A stretch of 64,000 nucleotides of DNA from Candidatus Staskawiczbacteria bacterium (GCA_041661545.1 JBAZUH010000001.1:339877-403876), one strand, 5' to 3'. Positions 3,001 to 63,405 are shown, counted from the first letter of the stretch. The notes: generated by a model not told the origin, from the sequence alone. Numbers and translations: made by a program.

Positions 3001-5724
3001 TACAGAACTAGAAGGGTCAGAAGAAGGACCTGTTCCAACAACATTTGTTGCTGTTACAGTAAATGTATATTCTGTTCCGTTTGTTAAACCTGCAACTATA
3101 ATTGGTGAAGATAATCCATTTGCAGTAATTCCTTCTGGGTCAGAAGTAACAGCATAATTTGTAATTTCACTTCCACCGTTGGATCCAGAATTGTCCACAT
3201 CTTCTTCGCTTGCCACGGCATAAAAACTAGCTGGGTCTCTTTGATTATTATATTCTGTAGCAATCCAATCTGTAGAGCGAGCTGAAGCAGATATACGAGT
3301 TTCATCTATACGTCCATTATAATAACCCACGTACCCCCACCCAATATACGAATTTAAACTTGAAGCAACTGCAGCAGCATATGGAGCCGCCTTTACAGTT
3401 ACTGGCACTCCATTTATATACCATATCATTTGCATAGTTGTAAGATTTCTCACTATAACAATATGATTCCAGATATTCAACGCCATTACACCCGACAAAT
3501 GAGATGTATATGGAGACGCATTGCCTCCAGCAGTACCATAATAATAGCTGGCAACACCGTTTGTTTCCTGTGTTATTGTTCCTTCTCCTCCGTAGGCCTT
3601 TGCATATGGATTTCTTCTTACAGAAAAATCATATGGATATACCCACATCTCTATAGTTTGGCTCCCAGTGATTTGTAAAGAAGCAGGATTGAGCAAATTT
3701 ATATAATTATTACTCCCATTAAATACCGCAGCCCCATTCATCTGGCCCGCTATGGCTGTTGGAGGATTTGCCGAGAGAGATCCATTGTTAGCGTTACTAG
3801 TAGAATCTACCGCGGTCATTGTCGAAGCATCACCCATATGCCATACCCCTTTAAAATTATCATCTCCCCCATCATCCCAAACTTTTTGCGAGCCGTAAGT
3901 AGAATCAACAGCTGGTTCTGTTGCACTAGAATTTCCATAATACATATAGATATCTGTATCTACAGACGTAGATAGCACGGGTACCTTAACCCACGCTACT
4001 AGGGTGCCCGCAGAATATGATTCTATTTCTCTTGCAAGCTCTGTTGTGCCATCGGAAGATGTAAATCTAATATCTGTTCCATTTGTATTTATGTTTGAAA
4101 GCCCTGTTAAAGACACTAAAACTGGAAAGTTTGTTTGATTGGTATTTGGAACTTTTGTTTTATCTATTGTAATCTTTTTTCTGTATGTCCAGCTGTTGTT
4201 GTACCATAGTGTAGGAGTAGGATCGTATAGCAAATTAAAATTAATCGTCGCCTGCGTGTCACCAGCAACAGCACTAGTGATAGTAGGTTTCCCGGGAATG
4301 GTTTTGGGGGTTGCTGATGCTGTTGCGCTTGCATCTCCCTGACCAGCACTATTTCTTGCTGACACCCTAAAATCATAAAACAAACCATTTATAAGCCCTA
4401 TTACATCTCCATAAGTATTTGTAGATTCTCCATCAGCAAAAGTTGTCCACTCTACGTCTGTAGTAAGCTTGTAATCAATAACATAATCTGTAATTACAGC
4501 TCCTCCATTGTTTAATGGTGCTGTCCACGACAAGCCAACCTGCGCATTTCCATAAGTTGCAATTAAGTCAGTTGGCGCATCTGGCACCGCAGCTGTTTCC
4601 TCAGCAGAAGATGCAAAATTAGTAAAAGTTGCAGGAGAACTTTGATTATTATATTCAGTTTTTATCCAATCAGCGGAACGTTTAATATTTGAAACCCTTA
4701 ACTCATCAATTACTCCATCAAATGGATATCCGATACCATCTCTACCGTCATTACCTATATAATAATTATTTCCACCATCTCCTATTGTAAAATGTGTAAT
4801 TGCTGTGCCATCTGGATTTCCATTTAAATAAAAAGTTGCCAATTTAGTTGCATTATCAAATGTCACTAAAACATGAGACCATTGATCCGTTGCTACAGCA
4901 GTCTGCCCACTATAAACATATGAACCTGTTGCAGACCAAAAAGATGCCTTCCCGGCATTTAATGTAAACCACCAACCTGATGCAAAATTATTTCCAATAA
5001 TTCCGTCGTAATTAACTTTAGTAATTGGCTTAACCCACGCACTAAATGTTCCATCTGACCCTGTTAATTTCAAACCAGCATTTGCACCAGTAACTAGAGC
5101 ATAACTTAGGTAATTAAAATTCTGTCCAGTATTTATTTGTCCAACTGCTTCAATTGGATCATTCGCCCCTCTTTTATTCGCGTTGTTTAAATAAGAAGTA
5201 CTGTCACTAATAGTAGAAGTGGTAATATCTTTCAAGTGCCACACCCCTTTAAAATTATTACTACCTCCATCATCCCATGTTCCACCAACATTCCATTGAT
5301 CAGCAACTAATGCATTGCCGTAATAAATATAAATATCCGTATCAACAGAAGTGAAAACTGATGGAACTTCTACCCATGCAACCAATTCACCAGTAGAAGG
5401 AACATATTTTTCTACCTCATGATCCAATTTAACACCACCAGTAGTTGTAAAAACAATGTCTCCTCCATCTGCTTGACCAACATGACCACCATTAGCAGAA
5501 TCTTTTAGTGTTACCATTGTGGCACTAATGAGCACTGGAAAATATGCTTGATCAGTATTTTGAACTTTGGTATGATCAATTGTAATTTTTTTTCTATAAA
5601 TCCAATCTGTGTTATACCAAGAATCTACTGCTCTTGCATAATTGATTTGGAAACAAAAAATAACTATAAAAGAAAAAAGAACAGCAAAAGCAACAAAAAT
5701 TCTTATAAATTTATTTTTCTTCAT
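1..5724 (-). CDS. Giant modular secreted/surface protein (N-terminus in window, C-terminus beyond position 1): four tandem modules of DUF2341-like + LamG/concanavalin-A-like lectin + fibronectin type III
   Basis: ATG is the cat at 5722-5724. The reverse translation starts MKKNKFIRIFVAFAVLFSFIVIF (signal/anchor) and stays open for 1908 codons in the frame registered on nt 1-3. It is absent from the ORF track because it has no in-window stop. Recurring motifs: WYNNSWTYRKKITIDKTKVPNTNQTNFPVLV, DIRFTSSDGTTELAREIESY, VAWVKVPVLSTSVDTDIYMYYGN, FKGVWH, ARSADWIATEYNNQ, GGSEITNYVIEYK. Confidence 0.85.
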   Translation of the reverse strand, partial: MKKNKFIRIFVAFAVLFSFIVIFCFQINYARAVDSWYNTDWIYRKKITIDHTKVQNTDQAYFPVLISATMVTLKDSANGGHVGQADGGDIVFTTTGGVKLDHEVEKYVPSTGELVAWVEVPSVFTSVDTDIYIYYGNALVADQWNVGGTWDDGGSNNFKGVWHLKDITTSTISDSTSYLNNANKRGANDPIEAVGQINTGQNFNYLSYALVTGANAGLKLTGSDGTFSAWVKPITKVNYDGIIGNNFASGWWFTLNAGKASFWSATGSYVYSGQTAVATDQWSHVLVTFDNATKLATFYLNGNPDGTAITHFTIGDGGNNYYIGNDGRDGIGYPFDGVIDELRVSNIKRSADWIKTEYNNQSSPATFTNFASSAEETAAVPDAPTDLIATYGNAQVGLSWTAPLNNGGAVITDYVIDYKLTTDVEWTTFADGESTNTYGDVIGLINGLFYDFRVSARNSAGQGDASATASATPKTIPGKPTITSAVAGDTQATINFNLLYDPTPTLWYNNSWTYRKKITIDKTKVPNTNQTNFPVLVSLTGLSNINTNGTDIRFTSSDGTTELAREIESYSAGTLVAWVKVPVLSTSVDTDIYMYYGNSSATEPAVDSTYGSQKVWDDGGDDNFKGVWHMGDASTMTAVDSTSNANNGSLSANPPTAIAGQMNGAAVFNGSNNYINLLNPASLQITGSQTIEMWVYPYDFSVRRNPYAKAYGGEGTITQETNGVASYYYGTAGGNASPYTSHLSGVMALNIWNHIVIVRNLTTMQMIWYINGVPVTVKAAPYAAAVASSLNSYIGWGYVGYYNGRIDETRISASARSTDWIATEYNNQRDPASFYAVASEEDVDNSGSNGGSEITNYAVTSDPEGITANGLSSPIIVAGLTNGTEYTFTVTATNVVGTGPSSDPSSSVTPATVPGQPTAVTPTYGDRQVSLFWSAPASNGGSAITDYVIEYKLTSDPDEPASWQISADPETATIVDTLVTGLVNGTSYDFRITAVNAVGSGSSSSPLVSSTPKTIPGEPTITSAVAGDTQVTVNFDLLSNPTTAPWYNNSWTYRKKITIDKTKVPNTNQTNFPVLVSLAGLSNINANATDVRFTSSDGTTELAREIESYSAGTLVAWVKIPVLSTSVDTDIYMYYGNSGATEPAVDSTYGSQKVWDDGGSNNFAGVWHMSEAGPTYVYDSTLNANTGTQLGTVVFGALGKIGYSTTYNGSQYFDVGSNESLSIGGETITQSAWIYPTANVAYGTIATKRSEYYFQRTDNQKIQTYHYGTIPPGYHASTDTVPLNQWSHVAYTYNGSNVTFYINGSLSGVISPRMGNISSVLWEKFMIGWDGQLGARYWIGGIDENRVSDVARSADWIATEYNNQSDPSSFYAVATEEDVANSATNGGSEITNYTVTSNPDSVVVSNSTSPIIVSGLTNGTEYTFTMTATNVVGQGPTSDASEAVTPAGVPGIPTEVIATPGNAQVDLSWTAPANNGAEITNYVIEYKLSVDETWTQFGHPVSPLTTISVVDLVNGSSYDFRVFAYNSAGTGASSDPPTSSTPRTVPGKPTITGVERGDGQVTVSFTPLSNITALDWYNNSWTYRKKITIDKTKVPNTNQTNFPVLVSLTGLSNINTNGTDIRFTSSDGTTELAREVESYADGTLVAWVKVPVLSTSVDTDIYMYYGNSGATEPDADSTYGAQKVWDDGGDNNFKGVWHLSDPTNPTDSTSNNNDGTNHGVTATLGKVDGSGSFNGISYADITSLTLNLSGSDFSASVWVKQNGTSYAVSQSHAVSPYASDWFIVSNVGGAQGIFWMRSVMLGNIATINDNNWHHLTMVWSVSAAKYIGYVDGASIGQSTAVTAYGGVGSVKIGARGDGTSPYYGGIDEIRVSSIARSADWIATEYNNQSAPASFYAVATEEDVANSAT

Positions 5725-5799
5725 TAATTTATTTATGCTAAACAAATCCTGCGCTTTTTATTATGCAATATTTTCAGTAAATAATATTTATTAATTATA

Positions 5800-6729
5800 C
5801 TACTTTATTGTCTTTTGTTGTAATTTTATCTCTCTTAAAGATAAGCCCATGAATACCACTAACAATAAAAATGTATTAAGTGGAGCTATCCAGAAAGGAA
5901 AATGACTACCAAAAGCCTCTAAAACCATAATACCGCCTAAAAATCCTATAGAATACATTGCGCCATTTTTTAAATAAGCATATTTTGCAATTATATCTAT
6001 TCCCTTAATTGTAAATTCCCTAACTACCAAAGCACCTAAACCATTTCCTAAAAATATTAAAGGAATAGACATTGTAAAAGCAAAAGCTCCAATTACGCCG
6101 TCTATTGAAAAAGTTGCATCTAAAACTTCTAAATACATTATTTTGCTCCACGAGGACATATTTCCAGTTAACATTTGCTTTTCTTTTTCTTCTGCATTCT
6201 TTTTAAAGCCATCAGTAATAAAAAATGCTGTTGACCCTATAACCGCAGACAAAGCTAAAATTGGATCAACTTTTATTGAGTAATAAACTACGGCAGTAAT
6301 AAATAAAGAAGATATCGCATAAAACCAAACAGATTGTTTGTGTATAAATTTTTCAACTAAAAATGCGTATTTTTTTTCTTCTAAAAACAACCATCCTAAA
6401 AATACAAAAAATAAATAAACTCCTCCAGCTAAAAGTAAAATTGCTCGAGATTCTTCTACATAAGCCTCAATTTCTGGCGTTGGATTAAAAACAAATGCCA
6501 CAACTTCAAAAATAGACAATGCAGGGTTTGCTATCCAAACAATTATAAATGGTAAAACCCCCCTAACGGCAAACACTGCTATAATTAAACCCCAAAATAA
6601 AAAAAACTTTCTAAATTTTTGAGGTAAAGTTTTTAAAACACTAGCATTGATAATTGCGTTATCAATGCTAGAAATTATTTCAAAAAGACACAACCCAAAC
6701 ACTACAACTATAATCTGTATTATATCCAT
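5800..6729 (-). CDS. TerC/DUF475-type integral membrane protein
   Basis: 309 aa and polytopic. The N-terminal FEIISSIDNAIINA motif is typical of the TerC/DUF475 family. Confidence 0.7.
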   Translation of the reverse strand: MDIIQIIVVVFGLCLFEIISSIDNAIINASVLKTLPQKFRKFFLFWGLIIAVFAVRGVLPFIIVWIANPALSIFEVVAFVFNPTPEIEAYVEESRAILLLAGGVYLFFVFLGWLFLEEKKYAFLVEKFIHKQSVWFYAISSLFITAVVYYSIKVDPILALSAVIGSTAFFITDGFKKNAEEKEKQMLTGNMSSWSKIMYLEVLDATFSIDGVIGAFAFTMSIPLIFLGNGLGALVVREFTIKGIDIIAKYAYLKNGAMYSIGFLGGIMVLEAFGSHFPFWIAPLNTFLLLVVFMGLSLREIKLQQKTIK

Positions 6730-7960: not shown

Positions 7961-10636
7961 TCACCTCGACGCCATCATGGTAGCAAGTTGAGCTTGCAAG
8001 AGTTGTAATACTTGCGTGATCAAAACAATAAGTTGTTGTCTTAGCTCAATAATTAATGTTGCATTGTCTTTTACTATGGGTTTTTGCACGGCCGTTGCGG
8101 GCATACCACCACCAGCAACAATGCAATTTGCACCAGACAAGATGTATCCTGATTCACATGTTGCTGGTCCACAAGTTGGATAAATATTATATGTTACTGT
8201 ATGTTCAATCGTGGGACAGGTCTCCTCTTCTACTAAAAATGTGTGCGAAGAATATGTACCTGTGTAGGTAAAAACTATCTGGCCGTTTTCGTCGGAAGTA
8301 CAGATACCATTATTGCAGTTATCTCCAATAATGGTATCTAGGGCTATTACATTGTCAATTTTAATACTATATGTGGTGCTTGATTTAAGGTCACCAATAG
8401 TATGCATAACATTCTCAGCATTACTAGATGACTCTGTCCATTGTTTATTAGCCAAGTCTGTCCAAGAAGAAACTAAAACATCAACTGAACCTGATTCAGG
8501 AGTAATTTCCATATTAGCAGTTGAAATCGAGGCATTTGAATTAGCTGATATAGAGTTTGTAGTAAAAGTTGTTGTTGAAGCACTATCTATATTAGTAGAA
8601 ATTCCTAAGAAAGGCCTGTTAACTGACGTAAGAACCGTTTGAGTTGTAGTAGCAGAAGTTAAGCTTGGATTTTCTAATTCAATAGTGATGTTATTATTGT
8701 CTGCGGAGTCCGTTGTTGCAGACAGTAAATTAACTTCATCGTTAGAAATAGTTTTAACTGGAACGGCCGAAGCATAAGAATAATTAAAATCTACATAAGA
8801 AGGCAAATCGGGAGTGGATCGCCAGTAGGAGTTTAAACCACCTGACTTTACCGAAAACCAATACCAAGAACGAGGGTAGTCTGCAACCCAATTAATACCT
8901 GAAAAAGATGTGTCATTTTCGGTATAATCAACAACGCTGTCTGCAAATTGGCTTTGATCAACAGTTCCTTCATATGTAGCAAATCTTTGAATACCGACAT
9001 ATCCATTAGTAGCATGGGTTTGTTTATACCAGCTATGAATATCAACTGAATTTAAGTTAGAAAAATAATAATCTGGAATTTCATCAGGGGAGTTTTGAAC
9101 CCAACCCCCACACTGCCACCACTCTTCCTCGGTTGGAGCTGTAGAAACCATAGCTTTAACATCGCCATGGACCAGACTATTTTTCGGCTGACCATGTGTT
9201 GTATTAACATCGCGGAGATAGAATCTCTTTGTAGTGCTATCTGTATCTCCAACTATAAAGGCATAATTTCTTTTTTCATAATTGCCAGAGGTATCTGTAA
9301 CTTTTATTGTTAAAGTATAGACGCCTGATTTTATGACTTCAAAATTACCTTGGACATTATTATCAGCTTCGCTAGTTATGACTACTGTTTCTTGTGGATA
9401 AGTTGCTACTGTATATGTACAATCGTTACAGGCGGTAGAATCAACATTCAACATATCAAAATCAAAAGAAATTGTATCATTTACGGCTATGGTTTGATCA
9501 ATATCTGTAAAAGAAACCATCGTATTGGTTAAGCTGTGTAAAAAAGAATTGGTTACCCATGAATTATTGCTATTTAAATTATAAATGAGTTTTTGGTTAA
9601 AAAGTAAATTATTGCTAGTTAGAGTGTTGGAGGAAGAAGATGAAAGATAGATGCCAATAGAATTTGAATTAACTGTATTGCTAGTTAGGGTGTTGGAGGA
9701 GGAAGAGGCAAGAGAGATGCCACGGTTATTTAAATTGGCCGTATTACCAGTTAGAGTGTTATTCTCGGAAGTAGAGGCAAGAGAGATGCCATAGTAGCTA
9801 TTTGAATTAGCCGTGTTACCAATTAAGTTATTATCGGAAGAGGTGGAGAGAGAGATACCATTTAAGTTGTTTAAATTAGTTGTATTGCTGGTTAATATGT
9901 TGGAGGAGGAGGTGGAGGGAAGATAGATGCCATAATCGTTTGAATTAGCTGTATTGCTAGTTAGGGTGTTGGAGGCGGAGAAAAGAGAAATGCCATAATC
10001 GTTTGAATTAGCCGTATTACCAGTTAGAGTGTTATTGCCGGAGGTGGAAGAAAGATAGATGCCGTGGTTGTTATTTAAATTAGCCGTATTGCTAGTTAAT
10101 ATGTTATTGCCGGAAGAGGAGGAAAGATAGATGCCGATAGTATTTGAATTAACTGTATTGCCATTTAGGGTGTTGGAGGAGGAAGAGGAAAAATAGATGC
10201 CATAAAGACTTGACGTGACATTATTGTTAACTATAGAACCAGAGTTCGCAGAATTAGTATAATAAATACCATATTCAAAATCAGTTATAATAATATCTGT
10301 TGTAGTGACATCGTCATAGCCATCGTTATAAATACCATAATTAGATGTGTCGTCATCTCCGTCAATCGTAAAACCGCCACCATCAATAGTGATGCTGTTT
10401 GAACCAAACAATAATCCATGAGCAGTGCAGTTTAAATTACCCGTTAAAGTATAAGTATAATCAGCTGCTCCTTTTACAGTGTCTCCGCAAACACACACCG
10501 CATCAGTAACACCGTTTAAATCTACATCTCCACAATCAGCCGCAAAGGCTAAATGCGGAAAAGCAAACATTATAGTTAAAATAATAACTACTAAAGAAAA
10601 ACGTACTATTTTATAATCTAAAATATTTTTTACCAT
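7961..10636 (-). CDS. Secreted right-handed parallel beta-helix (PbH1/NosD-like) repeat protein with a large C-terminal non-repeat region
   Basis: Signal peptide ending AFA. There are about 14 tandem ~22-aa units of type NTLTSNTANSNxYGIYLSS. Confidence 0.75.
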   Translation of the reverse strand: MVKNILDYKIVRFSLVVIILTIMFAFPHLAFAADCGDVDLNGVTDAVCVCGDTVKGAADYTYTLTGNLNCTAHGLLFGSNSITIDGGGFTIDGDDDTSNYGIYNDGYDDVTTTDIIITDFEYGIYYTNSANSGSIVNNNVTSSLYGIYFSSSSSNTLNGNTVNSNTIGIYLSSSSGNNILTSNTANLNNNHGIYLSSTSGNNTLTGNTANSNDYGISLFSASNTLTSNTANSNDYGIYLPSTSSSNILTSNTTNLNNLNGISLSTSSDNNLIGNTANSNSYYGISLASTSENNTLTGNTANLNNRGISLASSSSNTLTSNTVNSNSIGIYLSSSSSNTLTSNNLLFNQKLIYNLNSNNSWVTNSFLHSLTNTMVSFTDIDQTIAVNDTISFDFDMLNVDSTACNDCTYTVATYPQETVVITSEADNNVQGNFEVIKSGVYTLTIKVTDTSGNYEKRNYAFIVGDTDSTTKRFYLRDVNTTHGQPKNSLVHGDVKAMVSTAPTEEEWWQCGGWVQNSPDEIPDYYFSNLNSVDIHSWYKQTHATNGYVGIQRFATYEGTVDQSQFADSVVDYTENDTSFSGINWVADYPRSWYWFSVKSGGLNSYWRSTPDLPSYVDFNYSYASAVPVKTISNDEVNLLSATTDSADNNNITIELENPSLTSATTTQTVLTSVNRPFLGISTNIDSASTTTFTTNSISANSNASISTANMEITPESGSVDVLVSSWTDLANKQWTESSSNAENVMHTIGDLKSSTTYSIKIDNVIALDTIIGDNCNNGICTSDENGQIVFTYTGTYSSHTFLVEEETCPTIEHTVTYNIYPTCGPATCESGYILSGANCIVAGGGMPATAVQKPIVKDNATLIIELRQQLIVLITQVLQLLQAQLATMMASR

Positions 10637-10734: not shown

Positions 10735-10915
10735 CTAAGGCGAGGCAATAAACTCAGAGCGAGGCAATGAATTCGAAGCGTGCCCTGCAGGCAATTTTGC
10801 TTGGTCCCGCGAAGCGGGAAAATTGCCGAAGCCTGAGTGAGTTGCGCGCTGGCGCAACGAATGCTAGCGGAGAATCATTGCCGAGCGAAAATTTTATTGC
10901 CGAGCGAAAATTTAT
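10735..10915. repeat. G+C-rich structured intergenic repeat, copy E1 (GCGAGGCAAT...ATTGCCGAGCG family)
   Basis: Shares a ~125-nt core with 36239-36367 (cctgcaggcaattttgcttggtcccgcgaagcgggaaaattgccgaagcctgagtgag identical). Lies in the sod 3'UTR upstream of the terminator. Confidence 0.8.
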
Positions 10916-11535
10916 TTTTGTTCGAATCTTTTTTCTATTTCTGGCCAGTTTACAACATTCCACCAAGCTTTTAAGTAATCTGCACGTACATTTTTGTATT
11001 GCAAATAATAAGCATGTTCCCATAAATCGTTTCCCATAATTGGTTTGTGACCATCGCTAATAGGATTGTCTTGGTTTGCAGTTGAAATAATTTCTAATTC
11101 GCCAGATTTATTTTTAACCAGCCATACCCATCCAGATCCAAATCTTTTTAAGCCCTCATCATTAAATTTTTGTTGAAATTCTGCAAAGCTTCCAAATTGT
11201 TTTTCTATTTCCTCAGCTAATTTACCGCCGGGCACAAGACTGCGCCCGGTTTCGGCGGCAGGGCAAGTAATTTCCCAAAACATTGAGTGATTCACATGCC
11301 CACCGGCGTTATTTCTTACAGCTATGCGTATATCTTCGGGAATATCTTGTAAATTCATTAATAATTCTTCTGAAGATTTTTTAAATAACTCTGGATATTT
11401 CTCAATAGCTGTATTTAAATTATTAACATAAGTTGCATGATGTTTATCATGATGAAGTTTCATAATTTCTTCTGAAATATATGGCTCTAGGGCATTGTAT
11501 GCATATGGTAAATTGGGTAATATATATTTTTCCAT
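10912..11535 (-). CDS. sodA: Fe/Mn superoxide dismutase
   Basis: [36 protein letters not shown] and [18 protein letters not shown]. Confidence 0.9.
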
Positions 11536-11548
11536 AATTGTATTTTTT

Positions 11549-11740
11549 CTAATTTTCGTCTGCGCGAGAACAAGCTGGGCAATGAATTAATAAACGGCTT
11601 GCCATTTTTTCCTTTTTATCTTCACTTACTCTTGAATTACTTAACCAAATTTCAAATTCAGCTGCACATCTACTGCACTGCTCTGCATTTGTTATTATTT
11701 TTTGTTTTGCATATTTTGTTTTCATATCTTTTAGAAACAT
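11549..11740 (-). CDS. Small zinc-ribbon protein (CxxC...CxxC), function unknown
   Basis: 63 aa with CSRC and CPAC pairs. Packed 3 nt downstream of the preceding ORF. Confidence 0.5.
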
Positions 11741-11743
11741 TAG

Positions 11744-12040
11744 TTAGCAACAAGATTCGCCCGAGGGCATTTTAAATTCTTCCCTCTCGCCGTACTCTTG
11801 TTTTTTACCTTTGTGCCATTGTTGAACAGGCCTTATATAGCCTACTACCCTAGAATAAACTTCACAGGGTTGATAATTTGTTAATGCTGGGTTTTTTGCA
11901 TAACAATTATCACATTTTAAAATGTTTATTTTTTCTCCGGAGTTATCATACACTAAATAAACTCCTCCTTGTATTTCTTCGTTATTAATTGATAGTTCTT
12001 TGCCACAATCATGGCATGTATTTTCATTTTTTATTTCCAT
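11744..12040 (-). CDS. Stand-alone NrdD C-terminal-like domain (Zn ribbon plus glycyl-radical motif)
   Basis: 98 aa with CHDC...CDNC followed by YSRVVGYIRPVQQWHKGKKQEYGEREEF. Compare the E. coli NrdD C-terminus RRVCGYLG...FNAGKQEEVKRR. Confidence 0.6.
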   Translation of the reverse strand: MEIKNENTCHDCGKELSINNEEIQGGVYLVYDNSGEKINILKCDNCYAKNPALTNYQPCEVYSRVVGYIRPVQQWHKGKKQEYGEREEFKMPSGESCC

Positions 12041-13230: not shown

Positions 13231-14020
13231 TTAATTCTTTTAATGCTTTAATATAATTTTCTTTGTCTATGTTTTTATAATGCCACTCTAATTTTTTTTC
13301 AAAAAATGAAACCCCCTTACCCTTAACTGTTCTAGCAATAATAACTAAAGGTTTTTTTCTTGCACTGCTAAAACTATAATTTATTGCTTTTTCTATTTCT
13401 TTATAATCATGACCATTTATTTCAATTACATCCCAATTAAAAGCTTTCCATTTATCAACTAATGGTTCCATATTTAAAACTTCTTTCGTGGCGCCCATAG
13501 CTTGAAAGTTATTACAGTCTACAATAACAGTTAAATTATTAAGTTTGTGTTGAGCAGCTAAAGCTGCTGACTCCCAGGTAGTTCCACAATCTAGCTCTCC
13601 GTCAGACATTAACACATATGTTTTCCATTTTTCTTCTGATAATTTGGCTGCCAAAGCCATGCCCAATGCTATAGGAAGCCCATGCCCCATAGCTCCTCCG
13701 GCAACTTCTACTCCTCTAATATCTGGTTCAGCCAAACCTATATACTTAGATCCTGGCCTAGCATATGTTTCTAAATCTTCTTTAGGAATAACTCCTTTTT
13801 TAGACAAAAAATAATATAAAGAAGCCGCTGCCCACCCCTTAGATAAAAGGAATCTATCTCTATCTTTGCTAAGATTTTTGTCTATATTTAATTTAGAAAA
13901 TAAAACTGACAAAACATCAATGCAAGAAAAATTTGACCCAATATGAGAAGCTCCAGATAAGTGCACCATTTCTAAAACTTTTTTACGAGCATCATTGGCA
14001 ATTTTTTTATAATCTTTCAT
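13220..14020 (-). CDS. Transketolase-like, thiamine-diphosphate-binding (N-terminal) subunit
   Basis: SGASHIGSNFSCIDVLSVLF, GHGLPIALGMA, and MSDGELDCGTTWESAALAAQHKLNNL. Confidence 0.8.
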   Translation of the reverse strand: MKDYKKIANDARKKVLEMVHLSGASHIGSNFSCIDVLSVLFSKLNIDKNLSKDRDRFLLSKGWAAASLYYFLSKKGVIPKEDLETYARPGSKYIGLAEPDIRGVEVAGGAMGHGLPIALGMALAAKLSEEKWKTYVLMSDGELDCGTTWESAALAAQHKLNNLTVIVDCNNFQAMGATKEVLNMEPLVDKWKAFNWDVIEINGHDYKEIEKAINYSFSSARKKPLVIIARTVKGKGVSFFEKKLEWHYKNIDKENYIKALKELNER

Positions 14021-14030
14021 ATAATTAGTC

Positions 14031-36238: not shown

Positions 36239-36367
36239 AGCGAGGCAGTGAATTCGTAGCGTACCCTGCAGGCAATTTTGCTTGGTCCCGCGAAGCGGGA
36301 AAATTGCCGAAGCCTGAGTGAGCCCGCGCTGGCGGGCGAACGCTAGCGAAGAATCACTGGCGAGCGA
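36239..36367. repeat. G+C-rich structured intergenic repeat, copy E2 (between atpG and atpD)
   Basis: Near-identical core to E1. Differences are paired: ggcaAtgaattc/gaatcaTtgcc in E1 versus ggcaGtgaattc/gaatcaCtggc in E2, and ttgcgcgctggcgcaa versus cccgcgctggcggg. Confidence 0.8.
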
Positions 36368-42277: not shown

Positions 42278-42571
42278 TCCGGTGTAGCTCAATGGTAGAG
42301 CAACTCCCTGTCAATTAGGCAGCCTTCTGCAGGAATGCAGAATGAAAAATGAGGTGAAATCGGGGAAACCCTTTTGGGGCAATCCCGAGCCAAGCCCATT
42401 TTAAAAATGGGAAGGTGTAGAGACTATCCTTTACGGAGTACTAAAAATATAAAATTATATTTTTGGGAAGCGCCTCGCGCCCAGAACGGGCGATGATATA
42501 GTCCACCCCTAAAAGTAATTTTAGGACAATGTGTAAGGAGTGGGTTCTTGGTTCGAGTCCAGGCACCGGAG
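42278..42571 (+). tRNA. tRNA-Asn (anticodon GUU) interrupted by a group I intron in the anticodon loop
   Basis: Exon 1 is TCCGGTGTAGCTCAATGGTAGAGCAACTCCCTGT (ends 42311). Exon 2 is TAAGGAGTGGGTTCTTGGTTCGAGTCCAGGCACCGGAG (starts 42534). The ligated anticodon loop is CUGUUAA, with U1-A72 and G73 as in bacterial tRNA-Asn. Confidence 0.8.
42312..42533 (+). ncRNA. Group I intron (IC3-like), 222 nt, no ORF
   Basis: P1 pairs ctgt|c with ggcag, giving U-G at the splice site. The core gaaatcggggaaaccc...cccgagccaagc...gaaggtgtagagactat closely matches my recollection of the Azoarcus/cyanobacterial tRNA introns (GCCGAGCCAAGC...GAAGGUGUAGAGACUA). The intron ends in G. Confidence 0.8.
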
Positions 42572-42661
42572 CTTTAAAATAAAAACCAAGAGTATTGCCC
42601 TTGGCTTTTGTTTTGTGATAAAATATATCTAATATTTAATAATTAAAATTATTTAAAAAAT

Positions 42662-43237
42662 ATGGATTTAAATTTAAATTTATTAGTAGGGACTTTAACG
42701 GGGCTTACTATTATTTTTTTTCTTAGTAGAGTGGCAAATGAACGAAATCAAAAACCAGAAAAATTAGGCGGAGAAACAATACTAAAACCGTCCAGATTGT
42801 TTTATTATTTAGGAGTTCTTTCGATTATAATTGGGGCGTCTATGTGGTTATTTTTCATTTCAGATACAAATAGAACGAACCAAGCAATAATAGTTATATC
42901 ATTAATTTCAGCGTTTTTTTTATTATCAGGAACCTATCTTTGCGCATATGTAATAAGATATTTTGTCAAATATTCTGAAAAAGGAATCGTTTATCGAGGA
43001 TTGTTTGGCAAAACTAAAGAAATGGATTGGTCAGACGTAAAAAAGATAACTTTTAGCGATATTTCCACATATTTAAAACTGAAGAATGGCCCAATAGTTA
43101 TCAATATATATCCAATGACAAAGGGTTTTGATTCGTTCATAAACAAACTAAAAGAAAAGATTAGCCCCCAATTGTATCAGGAGGCGTTAGATAAAATGGA
43201 AAAAATGATGAAAAAGAGACCAGAAATTTGGTCTTAG
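42662..43237 (+). CDS. Hypothetical membrane protein (191 aa)
   Basis: Three predicted TM helices followed by a soluble tail. Confidence 0.6.
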   Translation: MDLNLNLLVGTLTGLTIIFFLSRVANERNQKPEKLGGETILKPSRLFYYLGVLSIIIGASMWLFFISDTNRTNQAIIVISLISAFFLLSGTYLCAYVIRYFVKYSEKGIVYRGLFGKTKEMDWSDVKKITFSDISTYLKLKNGPIVINIYPMTKGFDSFINKLKEKISPQLYQEALDKMEKMMKKRPEIWS

Positions 43238-43284
43238 AGTTAAAGCATTATATCTTAATCGATTCATAATTTATTAGCATAGAA

Positions 43285-43351
43285 GTTCTGAAATCGGACC
43301 AGCTAGCAAGCCACGGTTTTTTAAAACCACTTCCAAGTGAAGTGGTTTTTT
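43285..43351 (+). repeat. Intergenic TTCTGAAATCG motif plus terminator, copy 1
   Basis: gttctgaaatcggaccagctagcaagcc followed by aaaaccacttccaagtgaagtggtttttt. Confidence 0.6.
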
Positions 43352-43380
43352 AGTATAATTAAATAATTAAATTATTTCTT

Positions 43381-44796
43381 GTGCAAATGAACAATAAATC
43401 TATTCTCAACCAAGTTTTAATTATATCTATTATTATTTTTTTTATTAATATATTTGGATTTATAATTTCCGTGATTAAGTTTAATGCCGACATTACTAAT
43501 TTAAACACGAATATAATAGACTATCCTATTCCTATATTAATTACATTTCTATTATTGCTAGTATCAGTGACTATTACACCTCTTATCGCTGCAACATGTT
43601 ATACAATCAAATATTTACTTGCCGAAGCAGCTATAAACAACAAAATCTTATACATAATAAAAATTATACTTATAGTTTTAATATTCCCTTTATTTATATT
43701 TATAAAAACGATAATTCAAACCATCAAAAAGTTTAAGTTAATGGGCTTTAAGACAACTCTTCAATCCATAACTTTTAAAAAATGCTTGAAAGTAATATCT
43801 GCCTTGATAATAGTAATATTTATTGTCTTTCCTATTTGGACTATATATTATGGGGTCGTTATAGCAATTATTACACAAGATTATGATGTGGAAATTTACG
43901 TCTCGGGTGAATCAAATTCAATGTACCCTACTTTCGGAAGAGAAGTAATAGATAATAGCGATATAAGTTCTTCCCCCAACATGAAACCGTATAAAAAAAA
44001 TACGCCCGTAGGACGGGGCGATATTGTAGATTTTGAGTTTAAAAATGATGACGGCGTAAGGATGCTTATTAAAAGAATAATAGCTATAGAAAATGATAAG
44101 ATTGAATTAAGGGCGGGAATAGTATATCTCAACGGAAATCAATTGTCCGAGCCTTATACATACAAGCCAAGGTCAACATTCGGAAGTTTTTTTCTTAAAG
44201 ATTGCAATGCTATTATTGTCCCCGCAGGTTACGTATTTGTTATGGGTGATAATCGTATGGCAAGTGGAGACTCTAGAGAATTTGGATTTGTTAAAATTAG
44301 CTCAATAAAACATATAATTTCTATAAAAAATCAAATCGGAGTATTGGATAAATACTGGAGAGACACAACAAATGATTTTTCTGAGCAAGCAAAATTTAAA
44401 TTAGATAAAAATGCCTACCTAGATGAATTAAATAAAATTAGACGAAATAATAAAATAAATGAGCTAATATATGATTATAGATTAGCAATATCTGCACAAA
44501 AAATCGGTGAATTATCAGGTTTTGATAGTCTATCCAATGAAGATTTATTAGATTACGCTTTAACCACTATGAAAGAATATGGAAACTATAATGTTGATTA
44601 CTACTATTATGCCATATTTGACGGTCCCGCCACTCCTCAAATGTTAATTGACTCAATAAAATCATCGGAAACCACGAGTTCTGTTCTATTAGAAGATAAA
44701 AATATTTCTGACATAGGTATTGCAGAAATTGAAATAATTACAAATGGTTGTCCAGTGCAAAAAATAATACAATTGGTTGCTTCTGAAATACGATAA
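43381..44796 (+). CDS. lepB: Signal peptidase I (S26) fused to an N-terminal polytopic region and a C-terminal extra domain
   Basis: Catalytic GESNSMYPTF (Ser), IKRIIAIENDKI (Lys), and GDNRMASGDSREFG. Confidence 0.75.
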   Translation: MQMNNKSILNQVLIISIIIFFINIFGFIISVIKFNADITNLNTNIIDYPIPILITFLLLLVSVTITPLIAATCYTIKYLLAEAAINNKILYIIKIILIVLIFPLFIFIKTIIQTIKKFKLMGFKTTLQSITFKKCLKVISALIIVIFIVFPIWTIYYGVVIAIITQDYDVEIYVSGESNSMYPTFGREVIDNSDISSSPNMKPYKKNTPVGRGDIVDFEFKNDDGVRMLIKRIIAIENDKIELRAGIVYLNGNQLSEPYTYKPRSTFGSFFLKDCNAIIVPAGYVFVMGDNRMASGDSREFGFVKISSIKHIISIKNQIGVLDKYWRDTTNDFSEQAKFKLDKNAYLDELNKIRRNNKINELIYDYRLAISAQKIGELSGFDSLSNEDLLDYALTTMKEYGNYNVDYYYYAIFDGPATPQMLIDSIKSSETTSSVLLEDKNISDIGIAEIEIITNGCPVQKIIQLVASEIR

Positions 44797-44865
44797 CTCT
44801 TGCCTGACCGCTATAATATCAAATCTATATTTTTCTAAATTTTTTATAGCACCGCCCAACACAAA

Positions 44866-44942
44866 GTTCTGAAATCGTCCCACTTAGTGAGCTAAGTCAA
44901 GTCGTAAATCAATAAGCCACCTTTTAATTGAGGTGGTTTTTT
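44866..44942 (+). repeat. Intergenic TTCTGAAATCG motif plus terminator, copy 2
   Basis: gttctgaaatcgtcccacttagtgagc followed by aagccaccttttaattgaggtggtttttt. Confidence 0.6.
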
Positions 44943-44990
44943 GATATGATTAAATAATATAATTAAATATAAAAAAAATTCAAGAAAAAT

Positions 44991-45272
44991 ATGCCTTCTT
45001 TAATTTTCATTATCACATTAGCAATAGCGATTTTAGTTGGTATCCTAATAGGTATTTTAGATAGAAAAAAATTTATTAAAAATAAACTATTAGTGAATGT
45101 CTTGCCTGCGTCTAAAAAATTGAATTTAACTATTTGGCTTCTATTCATCGGAGGTCTTGCTATTATAATTTTAGGTATTGTAAGAGATATTAAAATTTTG
45201 GTAGATATAGGAAGTATTTCTTTCGGCATTTCGTTATTTCTATATTTTTTGTTTAGGAAGCAACTCCTTTAA
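44991..45272 (+). CDS. Small membrane protein (93 aa)
   Basis: Three hydrophobic helices. Preferred over the antisense ORF 44963..45229. Confidence 0.5.
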   Translation: MPSLIFIITLAIAILVGILIGILDRKKFIKNKLLVNVLPASKKLNLTIWLLFIGGLAIIILGIVRDIKILVDIGSISFGISLFLYFLFRKQLL

Positions 45273-45416
45273 TCTATTTTATTTAAAAAAATAAGTAATT
45301 AATTCTTAAACAAACTTGCAAAACTGATGTGTTTTTTATAATCTCGGCATCAAAATTATCGCCTCTCGGCCTCTAATTCTGGTTACAACAACTTCCATGA
45401 TGCGGAGTATATATTA

Positions 45417-45446
45417 AAAGCCACCTTTTAATTGGGGTGGTTTTTT
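45417..45446 (+). terminator. Terminator hairpin nearly identical to the one at 44914-44942
   Basis: aaagccaccttttaattggggtggtttttt. Confidence 0.6.
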
Positions 45447-45460
45447 GGTAGAGTAAAAAT

Positions 45461-46045
45461 ATGAAAATAGTTGGCATTTCTGGAAGTCCGAGAAAAAAGA
45501 ATACAAATTATATGTTAGAAACCGTACTTGATGCAACGGGTTTTGACTACGATTTGATTCTCCTTAAAGATAAAAAGATTAAACCCTGCAATGCTTGTGG
45601 CGGATGTTATAAATCTCATAAATGTATTGTTAAAGACGATATGCAAAAAATATATAATAAAATCCTTGACGCCGATATCCTGGTTTTAGGAAGCCCCACA
45701 TATTTTGATAATGTTTCGGCTATTATGAAGTCCTTTATGGACAGATGTCTACCACTTTATCTTTCAGAGGAACTTAAAAGTAAAAAAGTGGCGCTATTGT
45801 CAGTTGGTAATTTTAAGGAAGGCGAAATAATCAAAAATTCAGAAAAGGCAATAAAAAATCCGAATTTAGAAAAAGAAATGAATAATAGTGTCAAAAAGTG
45901 TATTAATGCTATGGAAAATTTTTGTGAAATACTGGGATTGAAATTAGTTGGTAGTGTTATAGCTATAAACGGAAACGCTAAATCAAAACATGATGAATTG
46001 GTTAAATTAGGAAAGAATTTACAAAAACTTTCTAATATCGTATGA
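45461..46045 (+). CDS. Flavodoxin-like NADPH-dependent FMN reductase / iron-sulfur flavoprotein
   Basis: KIVGISGSPRKKNTNYML, CNACGGCYKSHKC, and LVLGSPTYFDNVS. Confidence 0.75.
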   Translation: MKIVGISGSPRKKNTNYMLETVLDATGFDYDLILLKDKKIKPCNACGGCYKSHKCIVKDDMQKIYNKILDADILVLGSPTYFDNVSAIMKSFMDRCLPLYLSEELKSKKVALLSVGNFKEGEIIKNSEKAIKNPNLEKEMNNSVKKCINAMENFCEILGLKLVGSVIAINGNAKSKHDELVKLGKNLQKLSNIV

Positions 46046-46082
46046 CATTTATTCTAAATTATACAAGTCTATCCACCTTAAA

Positions 46083-46146
46083 CTTCTGAAATCGTCCCAC
46101 CCAACAAGCCAGAACCAAAAAAGAGTCGCAAAGACTCTTTTTTGTT
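46083..46146 (+). repeat. Intergenic TTCTGAAATCG motif plus terminator, copy 3
   Basis: cttctgaaatcgtcccacccaacaagcc followed by aaaagagtcgcaaagactctttttt. Confidence 0.6.
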
Positions 46147-46155
46147 TTTAATAGG

Positions 46156-47016
46156 TTATTTTATGTTGCGTAGAATACTGAAGATGTCTGCCGCTCGGTT
46201 AGGCATATAAAGAGCGGCAATGGCAATAGGCCTACCATTTACTGTAAAAACAGAATCAAAAGTGTTTTTAGCTTCATCTAAATATCCTGATTTTCCACCA
46301 ACAAAATTATTCATATAATAAAAACCGTTTCCATTTTTAAATTTTAGCATTTTTCCGGTTTGGTCGGGCAACCAAAAATCATTATTTTTGGTAATTTCAA
46401 GAATTTGTGGATGTTTCTTATAAATATATGAAATTAGTTTAGCCAAATCTGTTGCCGTTGATTTATTTTTTATATTTAATCCATTGGTATCGTAATAAAC
46501 AGTTTTAGACATTCCCAATTTTTTTGCTTTTTGATTCATCAACTTAATAAACTTTGTTTTGCCCAAAAAATATGACAAAGCTTCTGCTGAATCGTTAGAT
46601 GACTGAATTAAAGTTGCTTTTAAAAGGTCGCTTGCTGTTATTTTTAACCCTTCATATAAAGCAGGTGTTTGGCCATCGGGCAAAAGCATTTTTTCTGTTA
46701 AAACAATTTTCTTTTTCATATTAATATTTTCCAATGTCACAACAGCGCTCATTAATTTGGCAACAGAAGCCATTGGAAACTTTTCATTAGCATTTTTAGC
46801 TAAAAGCACTTTGCCAGTGGCAATGTCTACTGCAATATATGCGCCCGCAACCGGAGTTTCATACAAATTATAATTTTTATTCATTGCCTGAAGAAGAAGA
46901 ATTTCGTTTTGTAAAATTTCTAGCTGTTGCTCTGGTAAAGGCGTTAGGGCATCTGCATTTTGACTAAAAACAATAGCTACAAAGATAAATATCGTAAAGA
47001 AAAATTTTTGTTTCAT
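46156..47016 (-). CDS. D-alanyl-D-alanine carboxypeptidase (S11, PBP5-like)
   Basis: SVAKLM (SxxK), SSND (SxN), and GGKSGY (KTG-like). Confidence 0.8.
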   Translation of the reverse strand: MKQKFFFTIFIFVAIVFSQNADALTPLPEQQLEILQNEILLLQAMNKNYNLYETPVAGAYIAVDIATGKVLLAKNANEKFPMASVAKLMSAVVTLENINMKKKIVLTEKMLLPDGQTPALYEGLKITASDLLKATLIQSSNDSAEALSYFLGKTKFIKLMNQKAKKLGMSKTVYYDTNGLNIKNKSTATDLAKLISYIYKKHPQILEITKNNDFWLPDQTGKMLKFKNGNGFYYMNNFVGGKSGYLDEAKNTFDSVFTVNGRPIAIAALYMPNRAADIFSILRNIK

Positions 47017-53181: not shown

Positions 53182-53207
53182 GCCTTTCTGACTCGCAAAA
53201 TAACCTA

Positions 53208-53253
53208 CAAAAAAAGTCGCGTTTTTGACGGCCGTCAAAAACGCGACTTTTTT
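53208..53253. terminator. Perfect palindromic bidirectional terminator, copy 1
   Basis: aaaaaaaGTCGCGTTTTTGACGGCCGTCAAAAACGCGACtttttt. A 30-nt core is repeated at 61172-61207. Confidence 0.75.
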
Positions 53254-61120: not shown

Positions 61121-61171
61121 CATGCCAAAGTTAATTCTGCGGCTCTTTTTTTGCATAAGCATCCGCAAAAA

Positions 61172-61207
61172 TAGTAGCGTTTTTGACGGCCGTCAAAAAC
61201 GCGACTA
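61172..61207. terminator. Palindromic bidirectional terminator, copy 2
   Basis: tagtaGCGTTTTTGACGGCCGTCAAAAACGCgacta. The core is identical to 53216-53247. Confidence 0.7.
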
Positions 61208-61243
61208 TTTTTGAGGGATGCATAAATGTTTCCTTAATACTCT

Positions 61244-63299: not shown

Positions 63300-63405
63300 G
63301 CTTGTCCTGAGCGAAGTCGAAGGATTGACAATTTTGCAAAAAGTCATAAGATATAATTACTCAAACAAAATAGCTTTTTGACAACCAACCAACGGAAACA
63401 ACACC

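Follow-up and report, generated by a model that had tools for sequence, protein, structure and literature searches.

The DNA analyzed here is a 64,000-nucleotide (nt) stretch of a Candidatus Staskawiczbacteria bacterium genome (GCA_041661545.1 JBAZUH010000001.1:339877-403876), termed the window herein, in which a tRNA-Asn(GTT) gene is followed by four plus-strand genes whose spacers share a repeated motif. It lies on a 737,971-bp contig of this metagenome-assembled genome of the Patescibacteria. Our comparisons suggest that this locus is probably a recombinase-less four-gene island beside tRNA-Asn and that its spacers are the attachment-site scars of a serine recombinase.

RESULTS

Gene content next to the intron-bearing tRNA-Asn

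The tRNA-Asn(GTT) gene is located on the plus strand in two exons (42278-42311 and 42534-42571), which fold as tRNA-Asn(gtt) when spliced. The 222 nt between them (42312-42533), situated in the anticodon loop, are a group I intron (RF00028 Intron_gpI, 72.7 bits, E = 8e-19); it was scored by Rfam in a 311-nt search and missed in the whole-window and 4-kb Rfam searches, and ARAGORN misses the intron-bearing gene as well. Straight after the tRNA follows a segment termed X0 (42580-42616, plus strand), with a hairpin and T-run and then an AT-rich, promoter-like stretch before the first gene.

The four plus-strand genes listed in the initial annotation are present as open reading frames (ORFs) and could be typed with Pfam: a 191-amino-acid (aa) membrane protein (gene 1, 42662-43237; weak DUF6585/bPH_6 matches), a lepB-like signal peptidase I (S26) fusion (gene 2, 43381-44796; Peptidase_S26, E = 6e-23), a 93-aa transmembrane protein (gene 3, 44991-45272; no Pfam match), and an NADPH-dependent FMN reductase-like flavoprotein (gene 4, 45461-46045; FMN_red, E = 1.6e-24). 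According to Pfam they are unrelated to one another. All four are convergent with a minus-strand gene for a D-Ala-D-Ala carboxypeptidase (S11; 46156-47016), a flanking host gene recognized by Pfam and by its homologs and their contexts, which provides the synteny anchor. No Resolvase, Recombinase, Zn_ribbon_recom, or Phage_integrase domain was detected in window ORFs of ≥150 aa. A cassette-like spread of the lepB-like gene was considered and rejected: its nearest non-self homolog is 43% identical and lies among core genes, which gives no support for recent cassette exchange.

A repeated motif and intrinsic terminators in the spacers

The sequence TTCTGAAATCG occurs exactly at 43286, 44867, and 46084, always on the plus strand and nowhere else in the window. 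Its chance expectation is 0.04, and none of 100 shuffles reached three occurrences. The three motif cores are identical across 11 nt, and the copies widen to a 31-nt family with 77 to 81% identity. The motif reported earlier for three of the spacers is therefore real, and a decayed copy is also found in the third spacer. The motif begins 47, 69, and 37 nt past the stop codons, outside the reported range of 45 to 70 nt in the last case. A similar string had been noted at the 3' end of the lepB-like ORF; only the 9-mer TTCTGAAAT is common to both, it occurs seven times on the plus strand of the window, and the resemblance is probably due to chance.

Each of the three exact copies is then followed by a hairpin and T-run (intrinsic terminator), as had been described, at 43323-43352, 44914-44942, and 46116-46144, and a further terminator lies at 45418-45446. 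Eleven terminator-like sites were counted in 6 kb, compared to 3.5 expected. The near identity of the terminators at 44914 and 45418 also holds up, and the one at 43323 belongs to the same 52-nt family (D1), the members of which are 75 to 79% identical. We refer to the segments that contain these terminators as X1 to X4. X1 (43316-43374, plus strand) is a downstream-type (B') arm made up of TTTTAAAA, the terminator, and a TATAAT-like box. X2 (44895-44965, plus strand), of the same family as X1 and X3, comprises a spacer, the terminator, and an AT-rich box, and X3 (45409-45460, plus strand), recognized by its fold and D1 membership, carries the terminator and a promoter-like box before gene 4. 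X4 (46116-46144) is, from its hairpin and T-run, a bidirectional terminator common to the convergent S11 gene and forms the outer boundary of the island.

The motif is the C-terminal coding tail of a predicted large serine recombinase

Public metagenome contigs were scanned with the 17-mer GTTCTGAAATCGTCCCA, which returned 105 loci. Most of these are chance matches within long ORFs of higher-GC contigs, and 23 (18 distinct) lie on low-GC contigs resembling those of the Candidate Phyla Radiation (CPR) and have long common flanks. Read from the opposite strand, the motif TTCTGAAATCGTCCCA of these 23 loci yields the codons W-D-D-F-R-T, which lie within a conserved peptide, ..WLAGWDDFRTADWPEIVEYPELTLQQTQSLLQI, that ends at a stop codon; the conserved C-terminal tail is about 33 residues long (..AGWDDFRTADWPEIVEYPELTLQQTQ..). 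Outside the search 17-mer, pairwise differences at codon positions 1, 2, and 3 number 375, 158, and 714, respectively, indicating that the motif sequence is, or very recently was, translated.

The tail peptide forms the C terminus of a 327-codon open frame in one locus (L058) and also that of a large serine recombinase (LSR) protein (P0141). At E ≤ 1e-5, a database search with the L058 frame yielded 476 homologs, in which Resolvase, Recombinase, and Zn_ribbon_recom domains are present. By domain prediction, the motif-bearing frame is that of an LSR family common in Patescibacteria metagenomes. Scanning genome contigs for a gapped 26-nt pattern yielded 12 hits, close to the chance expectation; of these, only the two CPR hits, L004 and L009, are real. 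The 17-mer matches in viral contigs were rejected as chance coding matches in a capsid-like gene, and a search of IMG/VR for the LSR found no close relative (23 to 24% identity at best). Homologs P0168, P0189, P0192, P0198, and P0199 are 57 to 61% identical to the LSR query and carry the NCBI label of Dehalococcoidia/Chloroflexota metagenome-assembled genomes; the family may cross phylum boundaries, or these bins may be contaminated.

Besides the tail type described so far (t1), there is a second arm-sharing type, t3 (WLPLLDAF..); as an example of these arms, that of L057 reads TTGAC-ACACTTA-GAACC. A further conserved type, t2 (..AFENxxYIGELRQRWEEIKRLQ..PALA), was observed in L042 (1172-1285), L115 (1730-1843), and L107 (2722-2853) and in proteins P0123, P0171, and P0228. 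Its DNA arm, GCTC-CCCGCGC-CTTAC-GCTAGTATAC, contains no GGAC/GAAC motifs, a t2-like core lies 20 nt past BrnA in L115 and L042, and t2 tails may represent a subfamily with a different target.

The predicted crossover point falls in the recombinase gene on one side and in the tRNA-Asn 3' end on the other

Of the 476 homologs, 120 were listed, and in nearly all of these the alignment with the 327-aa query stops near residue 298. In an alignment of 30 sequences, W488 and L489 are invariant and all residues beyond them are unrelated; conversely, tail fragments share conserved sequence starting at ..CTC GCA GG.., and what precedes it is unrelated. Since the LSRs diverge after Trp-Leu and the tails are conserved only after it, the breakpoint can be placed at TGG CTC, and the breakpoints of the 30 aligned LSRs and of about 18 tail fragments all fall at TGG CTC / GCTC.

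What follows Trp-Leu in many LSRs is P-R-x-D-S-N-.., corresponding to the antisense of the tRNA T-arm GGTTCGAGTCC, and at least 10 of 35 inspected LSR proteins end in ..DSN.., the translated T-arm antisense. In L130, L135, and L136, the LSR reading frame terminates within a tRNA-Asn(GTT) gene on the opposite strand, and in L137 the LSR gene enters the 3' exon of an apparently intron-bearing tRNA-Asn. Intron-bearing and intron-less alleles are targeted alike. (The tRNA-Asn at about 11440-11520 of L137 seems to be split too.) The tRNA-Asn gene ends in the same GAGC(CA) core, the CCA on the tRNA strand being supplied by the TGG codon of the LSR. Taken together, the breakpoint and the overlaps with tRNA-Asn indicate that attB is the tRNA-Asn 3' end and that attP spans the 3' end of the LSR gene; the predicted crossover thus lies both inside the recombinase gene and at the tRNA-Asn 3' end.

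The attP region in the LSR gene reads ..TGGCTC-GCAGGGTGGGACGATTTCAGAAC.., and the 3' end of the tRNA-Asn in the window, the tRNA arm of the attB site, reads ..GGTTCGAGTCCAGGCACCGGAGC. Seven tRNA arms follow the pattern GCTC-N7-(T/A)GGA(C/T)-TC-GAAC (also written GCTC-N7-NGGAY-TC-GAAC), and the tail arms of types t1 and t3 follow GCTC-N7-NGGAC-N7-GAAC, which the window copies fit. The distance between core and proximal motif does not differ between the two site types, and in attP the distal GAAC is displaced outward by 5 bp. In serine integrases, the zinc-ribbon-domain (ZD) motif of attB lies 5 bp closer to the centre than that of attP (PMC3783163). Since the arm geometry equals this shift, the spacer motif can be read as the recognition arm of attP, a mimic of the tRNA T-arm/acceptor end with five extra bases.

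A tRNA-fragment repeat of the type found with tyrosine-integrase islands was also considered for the motif and rejected: the arm has the five extra bases and lies in the LSR frame, and ARAGORN reported no tRNA fragment. Likewise, a tmRNA 5' end, sigma-54 or extracytoplasmic function (ECF) promoters, and dif/Xer sites did not fit the motif on inspection.

The spacers of the window as attR-type hybrid sites

In the window, the attP-derived arm is present as sequence with matches to tail fragments and to LSR gene 3' ends, always on the minus strand. Copy 1 (43280-43313), with the core AAGCCA (43308-43313), was recognized by the exact motif, nhmmer (E = 0.006), and tblastn; it reads TGGCTT-GCTAGCT-GGTCC-GATTTCA-GAAC and, as a decayed recombinase tail, WLASWSDFRTSML... 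Copy 2 (44850-44894), with the core GAGCTA (44889-44894), was recognized by nhmmer (E = 8.6e-9) and half-site comparison; it reads TAGCTC ACTAAGT GGGAC GATTTCA GAAC and translates as LTKWDDFRTLCWAVL between two stop codons. Copy 4 (46067-46111), with the core AAGCCA (46106-46111), was recognized by nhmmer (E = 1.9e-5) and tblastn (E = 0.02); it reads TGGCTT-GTTGGGT-GGGAC-GATTTCA-GAAG, or WLVGWDDFRSLRWIDLYNLE up to a stop codon. The decayed copy in the third spacer (45375-45408; tail arm and core, ATTCTGGTTACAACAACTTCCATGATGCGGAGT) aligns weakly with the motif and contains ATTCTGGTTAC...TGCGGAGT; TGCGGAGTAT..AAAAGCCAC in the same spacer can be aligned, again weakly, with the tRNA-Asn 3' end and downstream sequence of the relative L019. 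When the window was searched with a tail-family profile, only the three other copies matched, over the first ~45 of 114 profile positions, which suggests that the binding arm survives and that the remainder of the tail has decayed. A tblastn search with the LSR over the whole window likewise found the motif sites only and no LSR remnant.

The other half of the spacers resembles sequence that normally follows tRNA-Asn. X1 and X3 can be aligned with the sequence directly after tRNA-Asn in L019 (scores of 28 and 21, respectively, compared to 9 to 15 for controls), matching the pattern TTTTAAAAC-ACTTCC..GAAGT-GTTTTTT-..TA..ATTAAA, and another locus (L086) has the same order of core, TTTTAAAA, and terminator. 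With a tail arm, a core, and a terminator segment of the tRNA-Asn-downstream type, each window spacer is best described from its sequence as an attR-type hybrid of the attP tail arm, the core, and the attB downstream arm. This host-side arm was found at X1 and X3 and not at X4. Mirror-image recognition motifs were sought in the X arms, and none were found.

The locus in relatives and similar arrays elsewhere

Orthologous loci were anchored by homologs of the S11 peptidase with 66 to 70% identity. In L014, the orthologous tRNA-Asn (11048-11338, minus strand), with an orthologous group I intron (69.7 bits), lies about 180 nt from the S11 stop codon and represents an empty site, compared to 3.6 kb in the window; a terminator is located at the position matching X4. 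L019 has an intron-less tRNA-Asn, with U32 peptidase and ice-binding-like genes in the slot, and L017 has another gene set with diverged tails at 11691-11798 and 13945-14022, which are preceded by a terminator type seen in the window. These comparisons of empty (L014) and occupied (L019 and L017) sites are between species. The motif was not found with up to four mismatches in the syntenic loci of relatives L014 to L020, and the diverged tails of L017 were found only by profile and tblastn searches. The initial annotation had named full synteny and invariance as grounds for abandoning its reading; gene content between tRNA-Asn and S11 differs in every relative examined (L014, L019, and L017).

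Two peculiarities were observed in L017. A perfect palindrome with two inverted cores (TTGGCTCATACGGTACCGTATGAGCCAAG) precedes each tail arm (11640-11700 and 13860-13900), and an insert of about 23 nt, CCTGTCCTGAGTCCATCGAAGGA, interrupts both tail arms.

Full elements of 8 to 11 kb encode, in this order, a 379-aa protein, SpoVG, a 380-aa protein, HTH_17, a restriction-modification or methylase protein, and an LSR abutting the tRNA, with a tail fragment at the end far from the LSR. The small HTH_17 protein upstream is a possible directionality factor. An insert of about 4.2 kb in L115 contains a t1 tail (2318-2430), BrnT/BrnA and small ORFs, and an LSR (4972-6567) whose C terminus switches after Trp-Leu to a t3-type tail, so that integration seems to have taken place in what was left of an earlier element. 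Such arrays recur: same-orientation arrays with two or three tails and modules of 0.5 to 4 kb were found in at least ten loci, L042, L057, L067, L107, L108, L110, L055, L115, L132, and L137, with cargo that includes BrnT/BrnA, SHOCT, DUF302, GIY-YIG, and NYN proteins. L086, with tRNA-Asn, three cargo genes, and a tail, has no LSR, like the window.

A model for the origin of the island and competing explanations

Sequence comparison thus shows what the motif is, where crossover falls, that tRNA-Asn is the target, that the spacers are hybrids, that the locus varies, and that arrays of this kind recur; the history of the island is inferred, as is any continuing use of its sites. In the model that we consider probable, attP crossover (core GCTC, in the Trp-Leu codons TGGCTC) lies within the LSR gene, the last ~33 codons of which form one attP arm. 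Integration would join the recombinase body to the tRNA, so that the gene then ends in tRNA antisense (WLPR.DSN..). The tail arm would be left behind at the opposite end of the insert, joined to the terminator otherwise situated downstream of the tRNA. Four modules, each with a promoter-like box, gene, tail arm, core, and terminator, would have accreted in this way between tRNA-Asn and the S11 gene. As for the order of events and the origin of the recombinase-less modules, these may have entered by serial LSR-mediated integration, with the recombinase genes lost later, or they may have come as composite elements with internal attR junctions from earlier hosts, which would explain the tRNA-downstream-like X arms inside the island. 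Given that no recombinase is encoded in the window, the array is either a relic or dependent on a recombinase elsewhere; the locus on its own is a relic and partly decayed.

Several observations weigh against this model. The window contains no cognate recombinase, by domain search of ORFs of ≥150 aa, nor an LSR remnant, so that deletion or action in trans has to be assumed, and no circular or excised form was observed. The copy in the third spacer is very decayed, and X0 (score of 15, within the range of the controls) and X4 are unlike the L019 downstream arm in local alignments. Because the 17-mer served to select the sequences underlying the tail profile, the nhmmer scores are partly circular. 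A t1 tail with BrnT/BrnA in L025 (10723-11670, the same sequence as L067) lies 5' of a same-orientation tRNA-Asn, unlike the simple scheme. Finally, canonical serine integrases recombine only attP with attB, and since the tRNA|LSR junction is no attB, inserting more than once at a single tRNA calls for a further assumption: composite excision or transfer, regenerated attB-like junctions, or relaxed site choice would have to be invoked.

The strongest competitor is active, integron-like capture, in which the recombinase-less modules are true cassettes with a hybrid site each, excised and then inserted at tRNA-Asn or neighbouring sites, in trans or in cis, by an LSR whose gene lies in another part of the genome or arrives with an incoming element. 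This would account for the binding-arm part (~45 bp) of the window tails being far better kept than the rest, and for the order of the junctions, in which a downstream-type arm comes after each tail arm and the tRNA junction therefore stays attB-like. Multi-tail arrays of one- or few-gene modules with an LSR at one end recur in L132, L115, and L137, and the same module of a t1 tail with BrnT/BrnA appears in four different arrays. We nevertheless regard this explanation as unlikely for the window, which contains no LSR and in which the lepB-like cargo gene has the distant, core-context homologs described above; moreover, attR × attR recombination is not a known activity of serine integrases (PMC3783163), and circular forms were not seen.

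Local duplication, in which one ancestral spacer with motif and terminator was copied by unequal crossing-over or homologous recombination, would explain the mutual identity of X1 to X3 and the 11 nt shared by the three motif cores. Outside this 11-mer, however, the window copies are no closer to each other (0.41 to 0.50) than to copies from unrelated metagenomes (0.54 to 0.56), which argues against simple local duplication. In addition, the copies belong to different tail subtypes, with L110 as the nearest neighbour of copy 4 and L025/L041 as that of copy 2; they separate unrelated genes, and the same architecture occurs independently in L086 and L017, making this explanation quite improbable.

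A shared regulatory element of the 3' untranslated region, or a small RNA, on the plus-strand transcripts had been offered as the alternative in the initial annotation and is now very improbable. The motif does lie between stop codon and terminator throughout the window, and a TATAAT box is found upstream of the L009 copy, but conservation follows the codon periodicity of the opposite strand (375/158/714), the motif is part of an intact recombinase ORF, and the L004 copy is located in a divergent promoter region. The four spacers have no common fold and no Rfam match at the gathering threshold or at E ≤ 5; over the region, Rfam gave only chance-level small RNA matches on terminators. A flank-closed hairpin over the motif was tried as a candidate and held for L009 only.

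A classical integron, or a cluster of attC sites lacking an integron integrase (CALIN), with attC sites and an IntI tyrosine recombinase, shares only the superficial layout of single genes between repeated sites and can be dismissed, as no tyrosine recombinase (Phage_integrase domain) is found in window ORFs of ≥150 aa, GTTCTGA departs from the GTTRRRY core, neither an imperfect-palindrome attC structure nor a hairpin over the motif common to the four spacers is present, and the sites derive from a serine recombinase gene. Of the cassette shuffling originally proposed beside the tRNA, the recombination-related module boundaries stand, as LSR attachment-site arms in a variable slot, and the integron in the strict sense does not.

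Other repeats in the window

Several repeats outside the island were also observed. An 84-nt GC-rich repeat, 96% identical and intergenic at 10758-10841 and 36239-36322 (AGCGAGGCAATGAATTCG..GGTCCCGCGAAGCGGGAAAATTGCC..CCTGAGTGAG), could be a small mobile repeat; a string of related appearance, TGTCCTGAGCGAAGTCGAAGGA, is located just past the terminator at 63300, and the L017 insert mentioned above is similar. A second near-duplicate terminator pair (53195-53253 and 61153-61211), 85% identical, with the palindrome AAAAACGCGAC..GTCGCGTTTTT and a common upstream flank, is unrelated to the tRNA-Asn island. Three to four tandem repeats of about 1.6 kb occupy the start of the window (1-5300), and 63- to 69-nt tandem repeats (9550-10240) lie inside an 891-aa NosD/beta-helix gene (7961-10636, minus strand).

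DISCUSSION

The LSR family described here resembles serine integrases such as those of Listeria A118 (LI), phiC31, and Bxb1 in its Resolvase, Recombinase, and zinc-ribbon architecture and in its short att sites around a central core, with a distal ZD-type motif 5 bp further out in attP. It differs from them in that its attB is the 3' end of a tRNA gene, serine integrases having not been known to target tRNA genes as of 2014 (Islander paper, PMC4383910), and in that attP lies inside the integrase frame, so that integration would swap the last ~33 residues. The elements are also small (4 to 11 kb) and are not phages, with no close relative in IMG/VR.

An attP within the integrase gene is known from the "suicidal" tyrosine integrases of the Mx8 IntP and SSV1 types, in which integration into a tRNA gene alters or splits the C terminus (PMC4383910, PMC7253208). 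The present family shares this position of attP and the change of the C terminus upon integration into a tRNA gene, but those enzymes are tyrosine recombinases with a long block of identity between attP and tRNA, whereas here a serine recombinase would use a core of about 4 bp and shifted motifs.

Prochlorococcus tycheposons likewise occupy tRNA hotspots, with tandem elements pushed outward by newer ones, degenerate integrase-less remnants, and att remnants between cargo modules. Their repeats duplicate part of the tRNA, and the recombinase is of the tyrosine type in 910 of 937 elements (10.1101/2020.12.28.424599); here, in contrast, the repeat is a fragment of the recombinase gene, and a module often consists of one gene that has its own terminator. 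Integrons and CALINs also consist of arrays of small gene units between recombination sites, with the recombinase sometimes absent, but in the present arrays there are no IntI or attC hairpins, and the units come with promoter-like boxes, terminators, and hybrid serine-integrase sites. The cis-mobilizable elements of streptococcal integrative and conjugative elements are att-flanked units that can be mobilized by an incoming element.

In the literature that we searched, the coverage of which is incomplete, no description of such a system was found. We tentatively raise the broader possibility of a widespread, undescribed gene-capture system of Patescibacteria, in which the C-terminal coding tail of the LSR is an attP arm, tRNA-Asn is the target, and the C terminus is swapped at each integration. 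Such a system might assemble, in an integron-like manner, toxin-antitoxin, restriction-modification, membrane, and redox modules; its hybrid sites might still be substrates, and its modules, including the four in the window, might be mobilized in cis or in trans.

If confirmed, the family would be one of serine integrases with a tRNA gene as the target, and it would form a serine counterpart of the Mx8/SSV arrangement in which the integrase gene spans attP; both the tRNA target and an attP in the enzyme's own frame would extend what counts as a typical serine integrase. For annotation, it would mean that such conserved intergenic motifs and variable recombinase C termini are artefacts of integration junctions and not regulatory elements or real variants. 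A candidate attP (~60 bp, ..AAATTGGCTCGCAGGGTGGGACGATTTCAGAACGG..), attB, crossover core, and recognition motifs are now defined for a family of 476 homologs. Since the natural target, tRNA-Asn, is present in the host genomes examined, the reaction can be tested in vitro, and the system could serve as an integration tool for organisms that lack genetic tools. CPR bacteria (Patescibacteria) have tiny genomes and few characterized mobile elements, and the locus would provide a concrete, sequence-defined mechanism by which accessory genes are gained and shuffled at one CPR hotspot.

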